Below, one piece after another: positions 852-10,896 of a stretch of DNA of 11,042 nucleotides. The translations under genes and the position numbers were made by a program. The notes below the pieces were generated by a model. The model saw only the letters and a list, made by a program, of their open reading frames with translations, made no database searches and was not told the origin of the DNA. The stretch's first letter is position 1. Each line of letters opens with the position of its first letter. Source of the stretch: a virus; UHGV virus genome UHGV-0292601; one strand, written 5' to 3'.

Positions 852-3800
852 ATGGGTAAAGGCAGCAGTAAGGGGCATACCCCGCGCGAAGCGAAGGACA
901 ACCTGAAATCATCCCAGATGCTGAGCGTGATAGACGCCATCAGTGAAGGGCCGATTGAAGGTCCGGTGGACGGATTAAAAAGTGTGCTGCTGAACAGTAC
1001 GCCAGTGCTGGACAGTGAGGGGAATACCAATATCTCCGGCGTCACGGTGGTGTTCCGGGCAGGTGAGCAGGAGCAGACACCGCCGGAGGGATTTGAATCC
1101 TCCGGCTCCGAGACGGTGCTGGGTACGGAAGTGAAGTACGACACGCCGATTACCCGGACCATCACGTCTGCAAACATCGACCGTCTGCGCTTTACCTTCG
1201 GTGTGCAGGCACTGGTGGAAACCACCTCAAAGGGGGACCGGAATCCGTCGGAAGTCCGCCTGCTGGTTCAGATACAGCGTAACGGTGGCTGGGTGACGGA
1301 AAAAGACATCACCATTAAAGGCAAAACCACCTCGCAGTATCTGGCCTCGGTGGTGGTGGATAACCTGCCGCCGCGCCCGTTCAACATCCGGATGCGCAGG
1401 ATGACGCCGGACAGCACCACAGACCAGCTGCAGAACAAAACGCTCTGGTCGTCATACACCGAAATCATCGATGTGAAACAGTGCTACCCGAACACTGCAC
1501 TGGTCGGCGTGCAGGTGGACTCGGAGCAGTTCGGCAGCCAGCAGGTGAGCCGTAATTATCATCTTCGCGGGCGCATTCTGCAGGTGCCGTCGAACTATAA
1601 CCCGCAGACGCGGCAATACAGCGGTATCTGGGACGGAACGTTTAAGCCGGCATACAGCAACAACCCGGCCTGGTGTCTGTGGGATATGCTGACCCACCCG
1701 CGCTACGGCATGGGGAAACGTCTTGGTGCGGCGGATGTGGATAAATGGGCGCTGTATGTCATCGGCCAGTACTGCGACCAGTCAGTGCCGGACGGTTTTG
1801 GCGGCACGGAGCCGCGCATCACCTGTAATGCCTGGCTGACCACGCAGCGTAAGGCGTGGGATGTGCTCAGTGATTTCTGCTCGGCGATGCGCTGTATGCC
1901 GGTATGGAACGGGCAGACGCTGACGTTCGTGCAGGACCGACCATCAGATAAGGTGTGGATCTATAACCGCAGTAATGTGGTGATGTCGGATGATGGCGCG
2001 CCGTTCCGCTACAGCTTCAGCGCCCTGAAGGACCGCCATAATGCCGTTGAGGTGAACTGGATTGACCCGAACAACGGCTGGGAGACGGCGACAGAGCTTG
2101 TTGAAGATACGCAGGCCATTGCCCGTTACGGTCGTAATGTCACGAAGATGGATGCCTTTGGCTGTACCAGCCGGGGGCAGGCACACCGCGCCGGGCTGTG
2201 GCTGATTAAAACGGAACTGCTGGAGACGCAGACCGTGGACTTCAGCGTGGGCGCAGAAGGGCTTCGCCATGTACCGGGCGATGTCATTGAAATCTGCGAT
2301 GATGACTATGCCGGTATCAGCACCGGTGGTCGCGTGCTGGCGGTGAACAGCCAGACCCGGACGCTGACGCTCGACCGTGAAATCACGCTGCCATCCTCCG
2401 GTACCACGCTGATAAGCCTGGTTGACGGAAGTGGTAATCCGGTCAGCGTGGAGGTTCAGTCCGTCACCGACGGACTTAAGGTGAAAGTGAACCGGGTTCC
2501 TGACGGCGTTGCAGAATACAGTGTGTGGGGGCTGAAGTTGCCGACGTTGCGTCAGCGCCTGTTCCGCTGTGTGAGTATCCGTGAGAACGATGACGGCACG
2601 TATGCCATCACTGCCGTGCAGCATGTACCGGAAAAAGAAGCCATCGTGGATAACGGGGCGCACTTTGACGGCGACCAGAGCGGCACGGTGAATGGTGTCA
2701 CGCCGCCAGCGGTGCAGCACCTGACCGCCGAAGTCACCGCAGACAGCGGGGAATATCAGGTGCTGGCGCGCTGGGACACGCCGAAGGTGGTGAAGGGCGT
2801 GAGCTTCCTGCTCCGTCTGACCGTAACAGCGGATGACGGCAGTGAGCTGCTGGTCAGCACGGCCCGGACGACGGAAACCACATACCGCTTCACGCAACTG
2901 GCGCCAGGGAACTACAGGCTGACAGTCCGGGCGGTAAATGCGTGGGGGCAGCAGGGCGATCCGGCGTCGGTATCGTTCCGGATTGCCGCCCCGGCAGCGC
3001 CGTCGCGGATTGAGCTGACGCCGGGCTATTTTCAGATAACCGCCACGCCGCATCTTGCCGTTTATGACCCGACGGTACAGTTTGAGTTCTGGTTCTCGGA
3101 AAAGCGGATTACCGATATCAGGCAGGTTGAAACCACAGCCCGCTATCTTGGTACGGCGCTGTACTGGATAGCCGCCAGTATCAATATCAAACCGGGCCAT
3201 GATTATTACTTTTATATCCGCAGTGTGAACACCGTTGGCAAATCGGCATTCGTGGAGGCCGTCGGTCGGGCGAGCGATGATGCGGAAGGTTACCTGGATT
3301 TTTTCAAAGGCAAGATAACCGAATCCCATCTCGGTAAAGAGCTGCTGGAAAAAGTTGATCTGACGGAGGATAACGCCAGCAGACTGGATGAGTTTTCGAA
3401 AGAGTGGAAGGACGCTAACGATAAATGGAATGCCATGTGGGGCGTCAAAATTGAGCAGACCAAAGACGGCAAACATTATGTCGCGGGTATTGGCCTCAGC
3501 ATGGAGGACACGGAGGAAGGCAAGCTGAGCCAGTTTCTGGTTGCCGCTAACCGTATCGCGTTTATTGACCCGGCAAACGGGAATGAAACGCCGATGTTTG
3601 TGGCGCAGGGCAACCAGATATTCATGAACGACGTGTTCCTGAAGCGCCTGACAGCCCCCACCATTACCAGCGGTGGCAGTCCTCCGGTATTTTCCCTGAC
3701 ATCAGACGGAAAGCTGACCGCTAAAAATGCGGATATCAGTGGTAGTGTGAATGCGAACTCAGGAACGCTCAACAATGTCACGATTAACCAGAACTGTACG

Positions 3801-4265
3801 ATTAAGGGCATGCTGGAGGCGACTCAGGTCAGAGGTGACTTCGTTAAAGCTGTATCCAAATCATTTCCGAAACAGGCTGGTACGTGGGGTAACACGGAAA
3901 CGCCAAACGGGACGGTTACAGTCACCATCAGCGATGATCATAACTTTGACCGTCAAATCATTATTCCGCCCATTATCTTTAACGGAATAGCGTATAGCGA
4001 TCCGGGAAGTGGTAATAACCCGGGAGGTACAAGATACACGGGTTATGGTTTTGAAGTTCGCAAAAACGGTGTATTAATCGCATCCAGAGAAACTAAAGGG
4101 GCCATTCCCGGTAGCTACAGTGCGGTTATTGATATGCCGAGTGGCAGGGGAAGCGTCACTCTGGAGTTTAAGGTTTTCCATAAAGGCAATCAATGGGCAG
4201 GTAATATCACCGACTGTACGGTGATTGTGACCAAAAAAGCCGCTTCCGGCATCAGTATTCGTTGA
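852..4265 (+). CDS. J: Tail tip / host specificity protein J (central tail fiber)
   Basis: 1137-aa ORF with a GAGG Shine-Dalgarno at 845-848. The N-terminus [20 protein letters not shown]… and most of the length are near-identical to lambda gpJ as I recall it. The last ~150 codons diverge and become AT-rich. Confidence 0.95.
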
Positions 4266-4285
4266 AATTGTTATAACCCATATAA

Positions 4286-4310
4286 GGGCACCAGAAATGG
4301 TGCCTTTTTT
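4286..4310 (+). terminator. Rho-independent terminator downstream of J
   Basis: GC-rich hairpin GGGCACC (4286-4292) / AGAAAT loop / GGTGCC (4299-4304), followed immediately by TTTTTT (4305-4310). Confidence 0.6.
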
Positions 4311-4334
4311 ATTGCAGAAAAGCGAGAGGTAATT

Positions 4335-4934
4335 ATGCGTAAACTTTATGCCGCCATTTTGTCCGCAGCCATTTGTCTGGCCGTATCCGGTGCGCCTGCA
4401 TGGGCATCTGAACATCAGTCCACGCTGAGCGCGGGGTATCTTCATGCCCGGACCAACGTTCCCGGCAGTGATGATCTGAACGGGATTAACGTGAAATACC
4501 GTTATGAGTTTACGGATACGCTGGGGCTGGTGACGTCATTCAGCTATGCAGGAGACAAGAATCGCCAGCTGACCCGTTACAGCGATACCCGCTGGCATGA
4601 AGATTCCGTTCGTAACCGCTGGTTCAGCGTAATGGCGGGGCCGTCTGTGCGCGTGAATGAATGGTTCAGCGCGTATGCGATGGCGGGTGTGGCTTACAGC
4701 CGTGTGTCGACTTTCTCCGGGGATTATCTCCGCGTAACTGACAACAAGGGGAAAACGCACGACGTGCTGACCGGAAGTGATGACGGTCGCCACAGCAACA
4801 CGTCTCTGGCGTGGGGAGCTGGCGTGCAGTTTAACCCGACCGAATCCGTGGCCATTGATATTGCTTATGAAGGCTCCGGCAGTGGCGACTGGCGCACTGA
4901 CGGTTTCATCGTGGGTGTCGGTTATAAGTTCTGA
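4335..4934 (+). CDS. lom: Outer membrane protein Lom (Ail/Lom family beta-barrel)
   Basis: 199-aa ORF with a GAGAGG Shine-Dalgarno upstream. It has an N-terminal signal peptide (MRKLYAAILSAAICLAVSGAPAWA) and a C-terminal aromatic residue (…GVGYKF) typical of outer membrane beta-barrels. The sequence is near-identical to lambda Lom as I recall it. Confidence 0.93.
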   Translation: MRKLYAAILSAAICLAVSGAPAWASEHQSTLSAGYLHARTNVPGSDDLNGINVKYRYEFTDTLGLVTSFSYAGDKNRQLTRYSDTRWHEDSVRNRWFSVMAGPSVRVNEWFSAYAMAGVAYSRVSTFSGDYLRVTDNKGKTHDVLTGSDDGRHSNTSLAWGAGVQFNPTESVAIDIAYEGSGSGDWRTDGFIVGVGYKF

Positions 4935-4960
4935 TTAGCCAGGTAACACAGTGTTATGAC

Positions 4961-4988
4961 AGCCCGCCGGTTCAGGCGGGCTTTTTTG
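4961..4988 (+). terminator. Rho-independent terminator downstream of lom
   Basis: Hairpin AGCCCGCC (4961-4968) / GGTTCA loop / GGCGGGCT (4975-4982), followed by TTTTTT. Confidence 0.6.
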
Positions 4989-4998
4989 TGGGGTGAAT

Positions 4999-6759
4999 AT
5001 GGCAGTTAAGATTTCAGGTGTACTGAAAGACGGCACAGGAAAACCGGTACAGAACTGCACAATCCAGCTGAAAGCAAAACGTAACAGCACCACGGTGGTG
5101 GTGAACACGCTGGCCTCAGAAAATCCGGATGAAGCCGGGCGTTACAGCATGGACGTTGAGTACGGTCAGTACAGCGTTATTCTGTTGGTGGAGGGATTCC
5201 CGCCGTCACATGCCGGGACCATCACCGTGTATGAAGATTCCCGACCCGGTACGCTGAATGATTTTCTCGGTGCCATGACGGAGGATGATGCCCGTCCGGA
5301 GGCTCTGCGCCGTTTTGAACTGATGGTGGAAGAGGTGGCGCGTAACGCGTCCGCGGTGGCACAGAACACGGCAGCCGCGAAGAAGTCAGCCAGTGATGCC
5401 GGCACATCTGCCAGTGAGGCGGCAACCCATGCGACTGATGCTGCAGGCTCAGCGCGTGCAGCCAGCACGTCAGCCGGACAGGCCGCGACGTCGGCTCAGG
5501 AGGCGTCTTCCAGCGCAGGAACGGCATCAACAAAGGCCACTGAAGCATCAAAAAGTGCTGCCGCTGCAGAGTCCTCAAAAAGCGCGGCGGCCACCAGTGC
5601 CGGTGCCGCGAAAACGTCAGAAACGAATGCTGCAGCGTCACAACAATCAGCAGCCACTTCTGCATCCACCGCGACCACGAAAGCGTCAGAAGCTGCCTCC
5701 TCAGCCCGGGATGCGTCGGCTTCAAAAGAGGCGGCAAAATCATCAGAAACGAACGCATCATCAAGCGCCAGTAGTGCCGCTTCCTCGGCAACGGCGGCAG
5801 GAAATTCCGCGAAGGCGGCAAAGACGTCTGAGACAAACGCTAAGTCCTCTGAAACGGCAGCGGAACAGAGTGCCTCAGCTGCGGCAGGCTCAAAAACAGC
5901 GGCTGCATCATCTGCCAGTGCCGCGTCAACAAGTGCCGGGCAGGCCTCAGCCAGTGCCACCGCCGCCGGAAAATCGGCAGAAAGTGCTGCATCGTCCGCT
6001 TCAACAGCCACAACGAAGGCTGGCGAAGCCGCTGTACAGGCCAGCGCAGCAGCGAGGTCTGCTTCCGCAGCGAAGACATCCGAGACGAACGCGAAAGCGT
6101 CGGAAACCAGCGCAGAATCCTCAAAAACGGCTGCCGCATCGTCCGCCAGTTCGGCGGCGTCATCGGCATCATCTGCGTCTGCTTCAAAAGATGAGGCGAC
6201 CAGACAAGCGTCCGCAGCGAAGGGCAGCGCCACGACAGCATCCACGAAGGCGACAGAGGCAGCTGGCAGTGCGACGGCGGCAGCACAGAGCAAAAGTACG
6301 GCGGAATCCGCGGCAACGCGCGCCGAGACAGCGGCAAAACGGGCAGAGGATATTGCATCCGCCGTGGCGCTTGAGGATGCGAGCACGACGAAAAAGGGGA
6401 TAGTACAGCTCAGCAGTGCGACCAACAGCACTTCCGAGTCACAGGCGGCAACGCCAAAAGCCGTTAAGGCCGCGTATGACCTGGCTAACGGGAAATACAC
6501 CGCACAGGATGCAACGACAGCACAGAAAGGGATAATCCAGCTAAGCAGCGCGACCAACAGCACATCTGAAACGCTTGCCGCGACACCAAAGGCAGTAAAA
6601 ACAGCCTATGACAATGCTGAGAAACGTCTGCAGAAAGATCAGAACGGTGCGGATATCCCTGGCAAAGACACCTTTACGAAAAATATTGGTGCCTGCCGTG
6701 CCTTCGGTGGGTCAGTAAGCACAACAACAGGAAACTGGACGACTGCACAGTTTATCTAG
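4999..6759 (+). CDS. stf: Side tail fiber protein Stf, N-terminal and shaft part (ends at an in-frame TAG)
   Basis: MAVKISGVLKDGTGKPVQNCTIQLKA… matches the lambda Stf N-terminus. The ORF track starts at GTG 4993, but ATG 4999 gives the lambda-like start. A long Ala/Ser/Thr-rich shaft is followed by two copies of the conserved GI(V/I)QLSSATNSTSE…ATPKAVK tail-fiber repeat. The frame stops at TAG 6757-6759 and reopens immediately in the same frame. Confidence 0.85.
   Translation: MAVKISGVLKDGTGKPVQNCTIQLKAKRNSTTVVVNTLASENPDEAGRYSMDVEYGQYSVILLVEGFPPSHAGTITVYEDSRPGTLNDFLGAMTEDDARPEALRRFELMVEEVARNASAVAQNTAAAKKSASDAGTSASEAATHATDAAGSARAASTSAGQAATSAQEASSSAGTASTKATEASKSAAAAESSKSAAATSAGAAKTSETNAAASQQSAATSASTATTKASEAASSARDASASKEAAKSSETNASSSASSAASSATAAGNSAKAAKTSETNAKSSETAAEQSASAAAGSKTAAASSASAASTSAGQASASATAAGKSAESAASSASTATTKAGEAAVQASAAARSASAAKTSETNAKASETSAESSKTAAASSASSAASSASSASASKDEATRQASAAKGSATTASTKATEAAGSATAAAQSKSTAESAATRAETAAKRAEDIASAVALEDASTTKKGIVQLSSATNSTSESQAATPKAVKAAYDLANGKYTAQDATTAQKGIIQLSSATNSTSETLAATPKAVKTAYDNAEKRLQKDQNGADIPGKDTFTKNIGACRAFGGSVSTTTGNWTTAQFI
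5341..6390 (+). repeat. Ala/Ser/Thr-rich low-complexity coding repeats in the Stf shaft
   Basis: Degenerate reiteration of units such as AAKTSETNA, SSASSAASSA and TKATEAA at the protein level. The GC-rich GCN/TCN codon runs generate long spurious ORFs in other frames and on the - strand. Confidence 0.7.
6391..6612 (+). repeat. Tandem duplication of the tail-fiber repeat (two ~132-bp units)
   Basis: Unit 1 is 6391-6480 (KKGIVQLSSATNSTSESQAATPKAVKAAYD). Unit 2 is 6523-6612 (QKGIIQLSSATNSTSETLAATPKAVKTAYD). Confidence 0.8.
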
Positions 6760-6798
6760 TGGCTGGATTCTCAGGGAGCATTTAACCATCCCTACTGG

Positions 6799-8070
6799 AT
6801 GTGCAAGGGTTCCTGGTCTTATGGCAATAATAAAATCATTACTGATACTGACTGCGGTAATATTCATCTCGCCGGAGCTGTCATTGAAGTAATGGGGATA
6901 AAGTCAGCGATGACGATCCGCATTACCACACCGACCACCTCCACTGGTGGTGGAACAACTAACGCCCAGTTTACCTATATTAATCACGGAACAGATTATT
7001 CACCTGGCTGGCGAAGGGACTATAACTCCAGAAATAAGCCAACGGCATCAGAGATCGGGGCGTTACCGTCAGGTGGAACAGCAGTATCATCAGTTAATCT
7101 GGCTTCAAAAGGTCGGGTAACCGCGCTGACAGACAATACGCAGGGGGCAACAGGTCTTGAGTTATACGAGGTGTATAACAACGGATATCCAACAGCGTAT
7201 GGAAATATCATTCACCTGAAAGGGATGACAGCCGTTGGCGAAGGTGAGTTACTCATCGGCTGGAGTGGTACAAGCGGTGCTCATGCTCCGGCATTTATTC
7301 GTTCACGACGGGATACGACCGACGCAAACTGGTCGCCGTGGGCGCAGCTTTACACCTCGGCTCATCCTCCTGCAGAGTTTTATCCAGTCGGTGCACCAAT
7401 CCCGTGGCCATCAGATACCGTTCCGTCTGGTTATGCCCTGATGCACGGGCAGACTTTTGACAAATCTGCCTACCCGAAACTTGCAGCCGCTTATCCGTCA
7501 GGCGTGATCCCTGATATGCGTGGCTGGACGATTAAGGGCAAACCTGCCAGTGGTCGTGCCGTATTGTCTCAGGAACAGGACGGCATTAAATCGCACACCC
7601 ACAGCGCCAGCGCATCCAGTACGGATTTGGGGACGAAAACCACATCGTCGTTTGATTACGGCACTAAATCCACGAATAACACCGGGGCTCATACGCACAG
7701 TCTGAGCGGCTCTACAAGCTCGGCCGGAGCACACTCGCACGTTGATGGTCGCAGGTTTAATACAAGCACTTTTAAAGACACCTATCAGTATGGTTCTACA
7801 GCTGTCGGAAGTAACTCATACCAGGTACAAGGGGCGGTTGGTCTGGGCATTGGCACGATGGCGAATACGAACTCTGCTGGCGCGCATACCCACTCACTGT
7901 CCGGCACTGCTGCAAGCGCAGGTGCACACGCACATACTGTCGGTATTGGTGCTCATACGCACTCCGTTGCGATTGGTTCACATGGACACACCATCACCGT
8001 TAACGCTGCTGGTAACGCGGAAAACACCGTCAAAAACATCGCATTTAACTATATTGTGAGGCTTGCATAA
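6799..8070 (+). CDS. stf: Side tail fiber protein Stf, C-terminal part (same frame as 4999..6759; sense codons run from 6760)
   Basis: In frame with the upstream stf ORF ((6799-4993) is divisible by 3). The 13 codons from 6760 to 6798 contain no stop. The C-terminal ~230 aa (…[19 protein letters not shown]…GAHTHSLSG…[22 protein letters not shown]) match the lambda Stf C-terminus, including the His-X-His repeats. The stop TAA 8068-8070 overlaps the tfa ATG (TAATG). Confidence 0.8.
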
Positions 8071-8654
8071 TGACATTCAGAATGAGTGAACAAGCACGGA
8101 CCATAAAAATTTATAATCTGCTGGCCGGAACTAATGAATTTATTGGTGAAGGTGATGCATATATTCCGCCTCATACAGGTCTGCCAGCAAACAGTACCGA
8201 TATTGCACCACCAGATATTCCTGCTGGCTTTGTGGCTGTTTTCAACAGTGATGAGGCATCGTGGCATCTCGTTGAAGACCATCGGGGTAAAACGGTTTAT
8301 GACGTGGCTTCCGGCGACGCGTTATTTATTTCTGAACTCGGTCCGTTACCGGAAAATGTTACCTGGTTATCGCCGGAAGGGGAGTTTCAGAAGTGGAACG
8401 GCACAGCCTGGGTGAAGGATACGGAAGCAGAAAAACTGTTCCGGATCCGGGAGGCGGAAGAAACAAAAAACAGCCTGATGCAGGTAGCCAGTGAGCATAT
8501 TGCGCCACTTCAGGATGCTGTAGATCTGGAAATCGCAACGGAGGAAGAAACCTCATTGCTGGAAGCCTGGAAAAAGTATCGGGTGTTGCTGAACCGTGTT
8601 GATACATCAACTGCACCTGATATTGAGTGGCCTACGAACCCTGTCAGGGAGTAA
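8070..8654 (+). CDS. tfa: Tail fiber assembly protein Tfa
   Basis: 194-aa [57 protein letters not shown]… near-identical to lambda Tfa as I recall it. Its start overlaps the stf stop, consistent with translational coupling. Confidence 0.9.
8489..8610 (+). repeat. Direct repeat, copy 1 (tfa 3' region)
   Basis: About 120 bp matching 9538..9659 at an estimated 85% identity (for example TATTGCGCCACTTCAGGATGCTGTAGATCTGGAAATCGCAACGGAGGAAGAAA versus the same with one mismatch at 9547-9599). Confidence 0.85.
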
Positions 8655-8668
8655 TCATTGGGATTATG

Positions 8669-8701
8669 CCGCAGCACGTCTTAAGCAAGAACGTGCTGCG
8701 G
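8669..8701. terminator. Hairpin between the convergent tfa and methyltransferase genes (possible bidirectional terminator)
   Basis: Perfect 11-bp stem CCGCAGCACGT (8669-8679) / ACGTGCTGCGG (8691-8701) with an 11-nt loop. On the + strand a T6 run follows about 10 nt later (8712-8717). On the - strand it lies directly after the methyltransferase stop but has no U-tract. Confidence 0.4.
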
Positions 8702-8708
8702 TTGGATG

Positions 8709-9377
8709 CTATTTTTTCCCTGAAGCGGAAAACATTACTACAGTACCTTGAACCTTGGTTTTAACATTCTCGAAATGCTCTGAGAGTATATGTGTTAAGC
8801 CTTCTTCGGAATCTTTTGTGTTTGAAAAGATGCCTTTCTGATTGTAAATGCGCATCAGTTTTTGACCGAAGCTATTGTGCACAACTCCATCGCCAAGAAT
8901 TGTGGCTCCGTATAGAGTTCCATCGTCAGTTAAGGCCTGCGCCGCATTGCGTATTACACAGCTTTTTGTAGATATATTTCCAGGCAGGCAGTGAAGAAGG
9001 TAAAACATGGAAATGGAATCAAATTGACCATGTAACGCCGCGGGATAAGGTTCAAAAACATCATGGCTAATTTTATGTTTAATTTTTGATTCCCCAGCCC
9101 TTGTAGATGCCGCGTTCAGGCTAGCTTCGTTCAAATCCATTAAAGATATCAGACTACTCTCAGGTACGTGAGTAAGGTAAAACCCAGTTCCAACACCAAT
9201 ATCCAGATGGTTGTTACCTAAATGTTCCAGAAAGTGTGGAAGAAGGTGTTCCTTTGTAGGACATCCCCATGCAAGCCGATTTGATACTCCCAAAACCCAC
9301 CAGTCATAAAGCTTTAGGGTAAGTGGTGTGTAAATTTTAGCCCCATCATCTGTGTTTTTTTTCATTAATTTCACCAT
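8709..9377 (-). CDS. Class I (Rossmann-fold) SAM-dependent methyltransferase, likely small-molecule or protein methyltransferase; phage cargo (moron) gene
   Basis: 222-aa ORF with the motif order typical of this fold: motif I LDIGVGTGFY, an acidic residue ending beta-2 (LMDLNE), motif II FDSISMFYLLHCLP, and motif III LTDDGTLYGATIL. I see no DNA-methyltransferase DPPY or PC motifs. Its position between tfa and a tfa remnant recalls the putative methyltransferase ybcY between tfaD and tfaX in the E. coli K-12 DLP12 prophage; that equivalence is from memory and unverified. A GGTGA Shine-Dalgarno better serves the second ATG (codon 5, base 9365), so the true start may be there. Confidence 0.75.
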   Translation of the reverse strand: MVKLMKKNTDDGAKIYTPLTLKLYDWWVLGVSNRLAWGCPTKEHLLPHFLEHLGNNHLDIGVGTGFYLTHVPESSLISLMDLNEASLNAASTRAGESKIKHKISHDVFEPYPAALHGQFDSISMFYLLHCLPGNISTKSCVIRNAAQALTDDGTLYGATILGDGVVHNSFGQKLMRIYNQKGIFSNTKDSEEGLTHILSEHFENVKTKVQGTVVMFSASGKK

Positions 9378-9433
9378 GTTATAGTTTTATTTGTGAATTA
9401 AATCAATTATGGCGATGAATTACAAGGGGTTAA

Positions 9434-9739
9434 ATGCTGCCGCAACATAGCGATATTGAAATAGCCTGGTATGCTTCGATACAACAGGAGCCGAATGGCT
9501 GGAAGACCGTCACCACACAGTTCTACATCCAGGAATTCAGTGAGTATATTGCGCCACTGCAGGATGCTGTAGATCTGGAAATCGCAACGGAGGAAGAAAG
9601 ATCGTTGCTGGAGGCATGGAATAAATATCGGGTATTGTTGAATCGAGTTGATACATCAGTAGCTCTGGGTATGAAGCTGTTTGTAACTCATGTTACAGTA
9701 ACAGTCATTACTATCTCGAAGGTGCAAAATGTATATTGA
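9434..9739 (+). pseudogene. Truncated tail fiber assembly (tfa-like) remnant with an unrelated N-terminus
   Basis: 101-aa ORF whose central segment [38 protein letters not shown] duplicates Tfa residues encoded at about 8497-8610. The N-terminal 37 aa and the C-terminal tail show no Tfa similarity. An AAGGGG Shine-Dalgarno lies 5 nt upstream of the ATG, so it may still be translated. Confidence 0.55.
9538..9659 (+). repeat. Direct repeat, copy 2 (inside the tfa remnant)
   Basis: See copy 1. The two copies are in the same orientation and flank the - strand methyltransferase gene. Confidence 0.85.
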
Positions 9740-9847
9740 TTTGATATTTTATAAATTTACTTCGAATCTGGCACGTCAACTTTTGATTAAAGTAATATCA
9801 GTTTTCGGCGAAAAAAGGACCGTGTACATGAGACGATTTCATACAAT

Positions 9848-9863
9848 GGAAGGTGCGAACAAG
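9848..9863 (+). repeat. IS5 left terminal inverted repeat
   Basis: GGAAGGTGCGAACAAG; one mismatch to the reverse complement of the right end. Confidence 0.9.
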
Positions 9864-9870
9864 TTCCTGA

Positions 9871-10896
<1,026 letters not shown>

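Follow-up and report, generated by a model that had tools for sequence, protein, structure and literature searches.

An intact ybcY orthologue, predicted to encode a class I methyltransferase, beside a tfaX remnant in the right arm of a lambdoid prophage

Introduction

The closest described relative of the locus reported here lies in the cryptic prophage DLP12 of Escherichia coli K-12 MG1655, where tfaD is followed by ybcY (a pseudogene on the minus strand), tfaX, appY and ompT. We analysed a stretch of 11,042 nucleotides from UHGV virus genome UHGV-0292601, referred to below as the window, which is the right arm of a lambdoid prophage. Following the tail fibre assembly gene tfa, the window carries an intact orthologue of ybcY on the minus strand and then a truncated, tfaX-like open reading frame (ORF). 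We consider it likely that ybcY, intact here and accompanied by a tfaX remnant, is the cargo gene that opens the leftward accessory arm of DLP12-like and lambda-like prophages at argU, an arm corresponding to the lambda b region. Annotations of the gene, of the genes around it and of its prophage setting already exist in K-12 and in thousands of other genomes, and the locus as such is not new.

Results

The ybcY locus compared with K-12

The features of the locus, in window coordinates, are as follows.

8070..8654, plus strand: tfa, a complete lambda-type tail fibre assembly gene of 194 amino acids (Caudo_TAP, E-value 3.5e-45)
8478..8609, plus strand: direct repeat copy 1, in the 3' coding region of tfa (repeat finder, reference copy)
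8668..8702: stable inverted repeat with a stem of 12-15 bp, between the convergent stops of tfa and the methyltransferase gene (fold z-scores -4.0 on the plus and -4.5 on the minus strand)
8709..9365, minus strand: ybcY orthologue, predicted class I S-adenosylmethionine (SAM)-dependent methyltransferase, 218 amino acids from M5 (RefSeq: 8709-9377, 222 amino acids)
9371..9375, minus strand: GGTGA Shine-Dalgarno sequence for the M5 start, placed by conservation
9378..9433: divergent AT-rich spacer with two candidate sigma-70 promoters for the methyltransferase gene
9434..9739, plus strand: truncated tfa-like (tfaX-like) ORF of 101 amino acids, made up of the 5' end of a phrog_3893-type gene (9434-9526), repeat copy 2 (9527-9658) and an unrelated tail (9659-9739)
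9527..9658, plus strand: direct repeat copy 2, the tfa-derived part of the tfaX ORF (repeat finder)

The order tfa-ybcY(-)-tfaX and the site (argU ... ompT-envY-ybcH-nfrA) are the same in DLP12, where ybcY and tfaX are b0562 and b0563, and the K-12 sequence is 97.3% identical at the nucleotide level over window positions 8216-9663. The two loci differ in the state of their genes. K-12 ybcY (locus excerpt 8153-8807) is a pseudogene through a 2-nt deletion (nucleotides 15-16 of the methyltransferase gene) at the ATG of codon 5, M5, whereas the gene in the window is intact. K-12 tfaX has TGA as its stop, and tfa-like sequence continues there to the natural end of tfa, after which appY follows; in contrast, the tfaX ORF of the window diverges after 9658 into a flank of the hydrolase-ompT type that is broken by an ISKpn26-like element. 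The same region occupies the DLP12 site in E. coli O26:H11 11368, followed there by an alpha/beta hydrolase gene, ompT, envY, ybcH and nfrA, and the methyltransferase of the window is 100% identical to WP_000239881.1 of that strain.

The ORF at 8709..9377 (minus strand) codes for 222 amino acids. Residue 5 is the first residue in 39 of 39 aligned homologues and in the 218-position PHROG profile, and relatives carry AAG or ACG at the position of the first ATG (M1). The GGTGA Shine-Dalgarno sequence (9375-9371) and the M5 ATG (9365-9363) are kept in E. coli, in an Enterobacter prophage and in the chromosomal copy of E. hormaechei, while the M1 ATG is not. Since the homologues and the profile begin at M5, and the Shine-Dalgarno sequence and M5 are conserved where M1 is not, the true start is probably M5 at 9365, giving a product of 218 amino acids.

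The gene also differs from the phage in composition. Its GC content is 0.408 (0.359 at third codon positions), compared with 0.561 (0.668) for the tail gene J, and the relative synonymous codon usage of the two is uncorrelated (r = -0.06); the spacer at 9378-9433 has 26.8% GC. The composition of the methyltransferase gene is foreign to the phage, and these values bear out the AT-richness relative to the tail genes that a preliminary description of the window had judged by eye.

Protein family and fold

The ybcY product passes the Pfam gathering scores for Methyltransf_12, Methyltransf_23, Methyltransf_25 and Methyltransf_11 and matches phrog_2132 over its full length (profile positions 1-218, E-value 7.9e-157). 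PHROG 2132 is labelled 'unknown function', as is PHROG 2341, the group of the downstream ORF. In an alignment of 40 sequences motif I reads H57-L-D59-I-G61-V-G63-T-G65, with D59, G61, G63 and G65 invariant. D81 and D106, which fall where the predicted strands 76-81 and 99-104 end, are invariant too, as are an N-terminal helix specific to the family (Y24-D-W-W-V, N33, W37, C39, T41) and the segment S121-x-S-x-x-Y126-L-x-H129-C-L-x-G. An AlphaFold2 model built on this alignment has a mean predicted local distance difference test (pLDDT) score of 90.2 and the usual alternating order of strands and helices. The protein thereby combines a seven-stranded alternating beta/alpha fold with profile scores above the curated thresholds and, judged by profiles, motifs and modelled fold, the product of the gene belongs to the class I SAM-dependent methyltransferases, as a predicted cytoplasmic enzyme of some 218 amino acids. 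The preliminary description had called such an enzyme on the minus strand at 8709-9377, after tfa; Pfam, fold and motifs all agree with that call, and only the start moves, probably to M5.

A Foldseek comparison of the model with the PDB placed at the top a bacterial phosphatidylethanolamine (PE) N-methyltransferase, juvenile hormone acid O-methyltransferase (JHAMT), phosphoethanolamine methyltransferases, NodS and polyketide C-methyltransferases, with template modelling (TM) scores of 0.54-0.67 and identities of 13-21%. Sequence and profile searches of PDB chains reached only JHAMT (3e-5) and UbiG. A search of viral folds in BFVD gave nothing beyond distant generic methyltransferases, NCBIfam gave only RquA and CpaM, both far below threshold, and PADLOC gave only a sub-threshold match to mad2. 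Taken together, the sequence and model comparisons support the view that the ybcY enzyme would act on a small molecule, and the JHAMT-like and UbiG-like profile matches are a weak lead towards O-methylation of a carboxyl or hydroxyl group.

Top among the PDB matches is 8ys9 (E-value 1.8e-11, TM 0.61-0.67), a PE N-methyltransferase from a bacterium and comparable in size, and nearby cargo genes, lom and ompT, act on the envelope. Both observations would fit a PmtA-like phospholipid N-methyltransferase that acts on PE in the membrane of the lysogen, a specific assignment that we regard as very improbable. We give just as little credence to an orphan DNA or RNA methylase that guards the phage genome against restriction or changes the expression of host genes. 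The 222-residue sequence contains no motif of the amino-type or C5-type DNA methyltransferases, either of the DPPY/NPPY type at motif IV, (D/N/S)PP(Y/F/W), or PCQ plus ENV, and its motif IV region reads FDSISMFYLLHCLPG. The protein is a single domain of 218 amino acids with no room for a target-recognition domain, and no DNA methyltransferase is found among the top structural matches. On these motifs the ybcY protein is not a DNA methyltransferase, as the preliminary description had also concluded; its nearest relatives act on small molecules.

In a library clustered at 50% identity the ybcY family comprises about 200 clusters at E-values below 1e-30. Its members include proteins from Acidobacteria and an Aspergillus protein at 45% identity, and none of them is functionally named. 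Clusters of more distant relatives bear generic automated labels such as 'UbiE', and nothing useful about function could be learned from the domains fused to distant homologues (P450, RCC1 repeats). Searching the literature for ybcY, tfaX and the RefSeq accession turned up no study of function. The family is thus shown to be one without a characterised member, whose genes are solitary and chromosomal in many Enterobacterales and are cargo downstream of tfa in several prophages.

The duplicated tfa end and the tfaX ORF

A repeat finder returned one family in the window, consisting of two copies of 132 nt that are 87% identical and 1049 nt apart. The direct repeats of about 120 bp reported in the preliminary description are therefore real and survive alignment, although the limits given there (8489-8610 and 9538-9659) were slightly short on the 5' side. 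The repeat is genuine tfa homology and not a chance likeness. The copies differ at 17 positions, and past the first four codons 9 of the 12 differing codons are synonymous. Because the differences are mostly synonymous, the repeats are two tfa alleles that diverged while functional, not a recent duplication in place.

The tfaX ORF matches phrog_2341 (E-value 5e-56), and its likeness to Caudo_TAP is confined to residues 31-77 (75-121 of the 131 profile positions), in keeping with the earlier account of a truncated tfa-like ORF with an unrelated N-terminus. Its first 30 or so residues match no other Tfa. The N-terminal 31-37 residues match PHROG 3893 (residues 3-37), and the N-terminus also matches that of an intact 79-residue ORF in Klebsiella phage Kp4882-3; tfaX thus joins the 5' part of a small accessory gene, in frame, to a tfa 3' end. 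The ORF is annotated by the Prokaryotic Genome Annotation Pipeline as a partial tfa pseudogene, and tfaX is truncated in differing ways in K-12, O157 and ST131. Given that no full-length Caudo_TAP match is present, the ORF is by its sequence a remnant and not a functional Tfa.

In Kp4882-3 (locus excerpt 2504-3071) the 79-residue ORF is followed by an overlapping ORF of 130 residues with a GFPSPAADY motif, which looks like that of the UmuD/S24 peptidase family. From this neighbour, the small genes of PHROG 3893 may belong to an SOS-related accessory pair.

The Rfam family RF02111 ('IS009') matches at full length at 8413-8611 (plus strand, 229 bits), a region that covers repeat copy 1 and lies wholly within the tfa frame; at the tfaX copy (9457-9660) it scores 107 bits against a gathering score of 117. 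One study of enterohaemorrhagic E. coli left IS009 out of its analysis of non-coding RNAs for lying inside the tfa frame on the coding strand (PMC5331693). From these positions, RF02111 appears to model conserved tfa 3' coding sequence, and we see no evidence here of a separate RNA gene.

Alleles without the gene and the origin of the arrangement

A synthetic junction joining tfaD 5' sequence to tfaX 3' sequence and its flank was found in one piece in nine to ten genomes; SFE8 and nine others like it have tfa running straight into the tfaX 3' end and the appY flank. In EM18-18-42 (locus excerpt 4814-5389) tfa switches from the tfaD type to the tfaX type inside the repeat and inherits the TGA of tfaX, which by sequence is a clear deletion of ybcY through recombination between the repeats. 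The repeats are thus shown to mediate natural loss of the gene. The tfa of SFE8 (locus excerpt 4814-5389) is intact, with a 3' end of the tfaX type and substitutions of its own, and appY and ompT come directly after it. The expectation that tfa would run straight into the downstream flank in relatives lacking the gene is therefore borne out for the flank that follows tfaX in K-12, as in SFE8-type alleles, but not for the flank of the window itself, for which there is no such genome among 5426 complete E. coli genomes.

Phage Ayreon carries a scar in which the methyltransferase gene is internally deleted. Its match to the tfaX N-terminus was considered as the ancestral small gene and set aside, being part of this decayed cassette scar. 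The phages ev099 and PhiR42_1, which looked like empty sites in a BLAST table, were also rejected; on alignment they have an independent tfa allele and an unrelated downstream flank.

Rather than an insertion into an already duplicated tfa end, the duplication is more plausibly a scar left when two phage genomes recombined once out of register. A single non-homologous crossover would have joined two phage right arms. The first arm would have carried stf-tfa-hairpin-ybcY(-) and a small gene on the plus strand, and would have been joined into the middle of tfa in a second phage with the order stf-tfa-appY-ompT, giving tfa-ybcY-tfaX. Homologous recombination within the conserved 3' end of tfa could later have carried the cassette from one tail module to another. 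The left boundary of the cassette varies, taking in the full tfa in some copies and starting at 8535 in ev243 and at 8669 in Turner.

It is also conceivable that the 1049-bp unit is a discrete cassette, which excises as a circle between the repeats and re-enters a lambda-type tfa by a single Campbell-type crossover. The unit is flanked by direct repeats, repeat-mediated loss is observed, and the same core is found behind differing tail-fibre modules and at differing integration sites; such a cassette also predicts that tfaX runs on as a tfa 3' end past the repeat, as it does in K-12. However, the variable left boundary leaves many copies without a left repeat, the N-terminal part of tfaX is a piece of a different gene, which points to an illegitimate joint, and neither a circular form nor a recombinase is associated with the unit. 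We therefore think this alternative unlikely and favour the single out-of-register crossover.

Expression signals

Two candidate promoters for the methyltransferase gene lie in the AT-rich spacer.

P1, minus strand: -35 at 9406-9401 (TTGATT), -10 at 9383-9378 (TATAAC), spacing 17
P2, minus strand: -35 at 9433-9428 (TTAACC), -10 at 9411-9406 (CATAAT), spacing 16 (promoter scan)

P1 would set the transcription start within or just past the Shine-Dalgarno sequence, and P2 would yield a leader of about 34 nt that includes it. In K-12 the ybcY/tfaX spacer is listed as a site for the RpoD holoenzyme found by systematic evolution of ligands by exponential enrichment (SELEX), together with an H-NS site; the ybcY promoter predicted there, TTGATT-17-TATAAC, has the hexamers of P1 (PMC3946193). 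The 5' region of the gene, comprising the Shine-Dalgarno sequence and the TTGATTTAATTCAC box, is conserved between phage-borne and chromosomal copies, which suggests that the gene moved together with its own control region.

At the other end of the gene, the hairpin at 8668-8702 begins 6 nt past the methyltransferase stop and is a possible bidirectional terminator or RNA end. It is common to lambda, where it also lies downstream of tfa; the tfa gene of the window is 94% identical to that of lambda and the match extends to 8703. A small ORF at 8596-8751 (plus strand), which RefSeq annotates as a 45-residue 'hypothetical protein' (WP_001309429.1), overlaps the tfa stop, the hairpin and the 3' end of the methyltransferase gene, and is probably a spurious call across the hairpin.

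Distribution and conservation

Of the 5426 complete E. coli genomes, 3836 (71%) contain the 730-nt gene region with at least 95% identity, in up to four copies, and positions 8000-9900 of the window are covered to at least 80% in 1129 genomes. The preliminary description had taken this to be the least characterised element in the window, a claim that does not survive the finding that it is the annotated ybcY/tfaX of K-12 DLP12. The gene is intact and at least 99% identical in most of the 3836 genomes, and the cluster of the 222-residue protein has 6589 member sequences, with truncated clusters a small minority.

Free temperate phages also carry the gene (PhiR26_1, Turner, ev243 and 2G7b). The order in PhiR26_1, Turner and ev243 is ybcY-tfaX-hydrolase-ompT-(att)-int, where att is the attachment site, and tfaX is the only one of these genes that is not leftward. 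The preliminary description saw an antisense insertion within a duplicated tfa end. The orientation is as stated, but since the whole accessory arm of these phages (ybcY, hydrolase, ompT, int) runs leftward it is the norm and no sign of a special insertion, and the duplication is more plausibly a recombination scar. As free phages carry ompT between tfaX and the attachment site, ompT travels as phage cargo. In PhiR26_1 (locus excerpt 5924-8548) and Turner (4489-7113) we also observed, alongside ompT, an alpha/beta hydrolase of 494 amino acids (Abhydrolase_1 with a TAP-like C-terminus). A functional tie between methyltransferase and hydrolase was considered and rejected; the 494-residue hydrolase of the phages and a 276-residue one in Enterobacter are unrelated beyond their fold.

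The settings of the gene are diverse. In an ST131 prophage at ompW-trpA the cassette stands behind an invertible fibre segment. In O157:H7 NE1127 (locus excerpt 2295-4508) tfa and ybcY are separated by another cargo block of the accessory arm, coding for a manganese catalase, a pair of ferritin-like proteins and a general stress protein; tfaX in this strain is broken by ISEc8. Strain FP4 retains only a minimal remnant, int'-tfa'-methyltransferase-ompT, in which the 218-codon gene is intact and differs by 6 synonymous and 2 non-synonymous changes. An Enterobacter prophage has the order stf-tfa-mig-14-...-methyltransferase, with 69% protein identity. The homologues of Salmonella, E. hormaechei and Yersinia (56-65% identity) stand alone on the chromosome among unrelated neighbours, which makes a bacterial origin of the gene plausible; none of these neighbours is a partner gene that would indicate a pathway.

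These data bear on whether the gene is a decaying passenger without current function, carried between tfa and the selected cargo gene ompT. The pseudogene in K-12, the internally deleted scar in Ayreon and the deletion alleles described above would all fit a passenger, as would the binding of H-NS to the spacer and the absence of a phenotype in a screen concerned with Hha. Against this stand the intact, nearly invariant gene in most of the 3836 genomes and its survival in a remnant stripped of nearly all phage genes. Substitutions are mostly synonymous, and about 60 positions are invariant in the family, all SAM-binding motifs among them. On balance a mere passenger seems improbable to us, if by no means negligible.

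The rest of the window

The remaining features set the locus in its prophage.

Tail genes K/I, then J at 852-4265
4335-4934: lom
4993-6759 and 6799-8070: side tail fibre gene, in two ORFs split by an amber codon
9848..11042, plus strand: ISKpn26-like element of the IS5 family, 1195 bp, with its transposase at 9916-10896

The side tail fibre gene has an in-frame TAG at 6757-6759 where phage PhiR26_1 reads GAG. Because this amber codon breaks the gene, side fibres are probably not made by the prophage. The defect recalls the stf defect of laboratory lambda.

The ISKpn26-like element interrupts the accessory arm 108 bp past the tfaX ORF, where relatives carry the alpha/beta hydrolase gene and ompT, and its right inverted repeat is the exact end of the window. 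The insertion junction was found in none of the 5426 complete E. coli genomes.

Discussion

We propose that ybcY would serve as a lysogenic-conversion or fitness gene, and not in DNA modification or as part of the virion. In the lysogen a sigma-70 promoter of its own, within the AT-rich spacer that H-NS binds in K-12, would drive its transcription, and during lytic growth the leftward early transcript may also include it as its most distal part.

Several points weigh against this proposal. No substrate, partner gene or phenotype is known for ybcY; the K-12 mutant was without effect in the Hha screen, the one screen found (PMC2408971), and the K-12 copy is a pseudogene. Promoter-like sites were no commoner in our scan than in shuffled sequence, for which reason P1 and P2 are still predictions, and the SELEX study shows binding of RNA polymerase in vitro only (PMC3946193). 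The hairpin at 8668-8702 has no U-tract on either strand, and a terminator scan found no canonical terminator there. Lytic read-through from pL would be an extrapolation from lambda. As to the history of the locus, a synthetic junction for the right flank of the window (8250-8560 joined to 9610-9860) retrieved a full-length empty site from none of the 5426 genomes, and the SFE8-type alleles could be old deletions, so that the direction of gain and loss is inferred.

A more specific possibility is that ybcY is a domesticated prophage gene under selection in most E. coli, whose product methylates a particular small molecule or envelope lipid, for example to detoxify a metabolite of a competitor or to modify a membrane component. 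We offer this as a distinctly speculative idea, a little less probable even than a passenger gene. If it were true, lysogens with a domesticated ybcY would gain a selectable phenotype, and the gene would represent a new enzyme family common to other Enterobacterales and fungi.

The substantive question is the substrate of the enzyme and whether its wide retention reflects selection. An uncharacterised methyltransferase family that is present in about 70% of E. coli, and intact in degraded prophage remnants, makes a reasonable and cheap target for enzymology and metabolomics. The locus also offers a traceable case of how a lambdoid right arm is assembled, with an illegitimate in-frame joint, spread by way of the tfa 3' end and natural loss between the repeats.

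Compared with known enzymes, the ybcY protein shares the Rossmann-type seven-strand fold, SAM motifs I-III and single-domain size of JHAMT (7ebs/7ec0), UbiG, the PE N-methyltransferase 8ys9, DhpI and BelI/CysG, and JHAMT aligns with the 'FYxLH' segment after strand 4. Identity to these small-molecule methyltransferases is only 12-21%, with no common substrate-binding residues established, and the N-terminal YDWWV...SN..AW.C.T helix is specific to the ybcY family.

Among phage genes, the nearest counterparts are the lambdoid morons, such as lom and bor, and the lambda b region. A moron is defined by having its own promoter and its own terminator, in the concept of Hendrix and Juhala. The preliminary description had proposed a moron acquired by recombination, and ybcY has the foreign composition and the variable presence among relatives that mark lambdoid morons, while its own promoter and terminator are predicted only. 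The sequence is shared with lambda past the tfa stop and through the hairpin, to 8703, and beyond this point the lambda ea genes are unrelated in content to the ybcY arm. In position the likeness is close. The genes of the lambda b region (ea47, ea31, ea59) are non-essential, lie between tfa and att and run leftward, convergent with the late operon, and ybcY follows the same plan.

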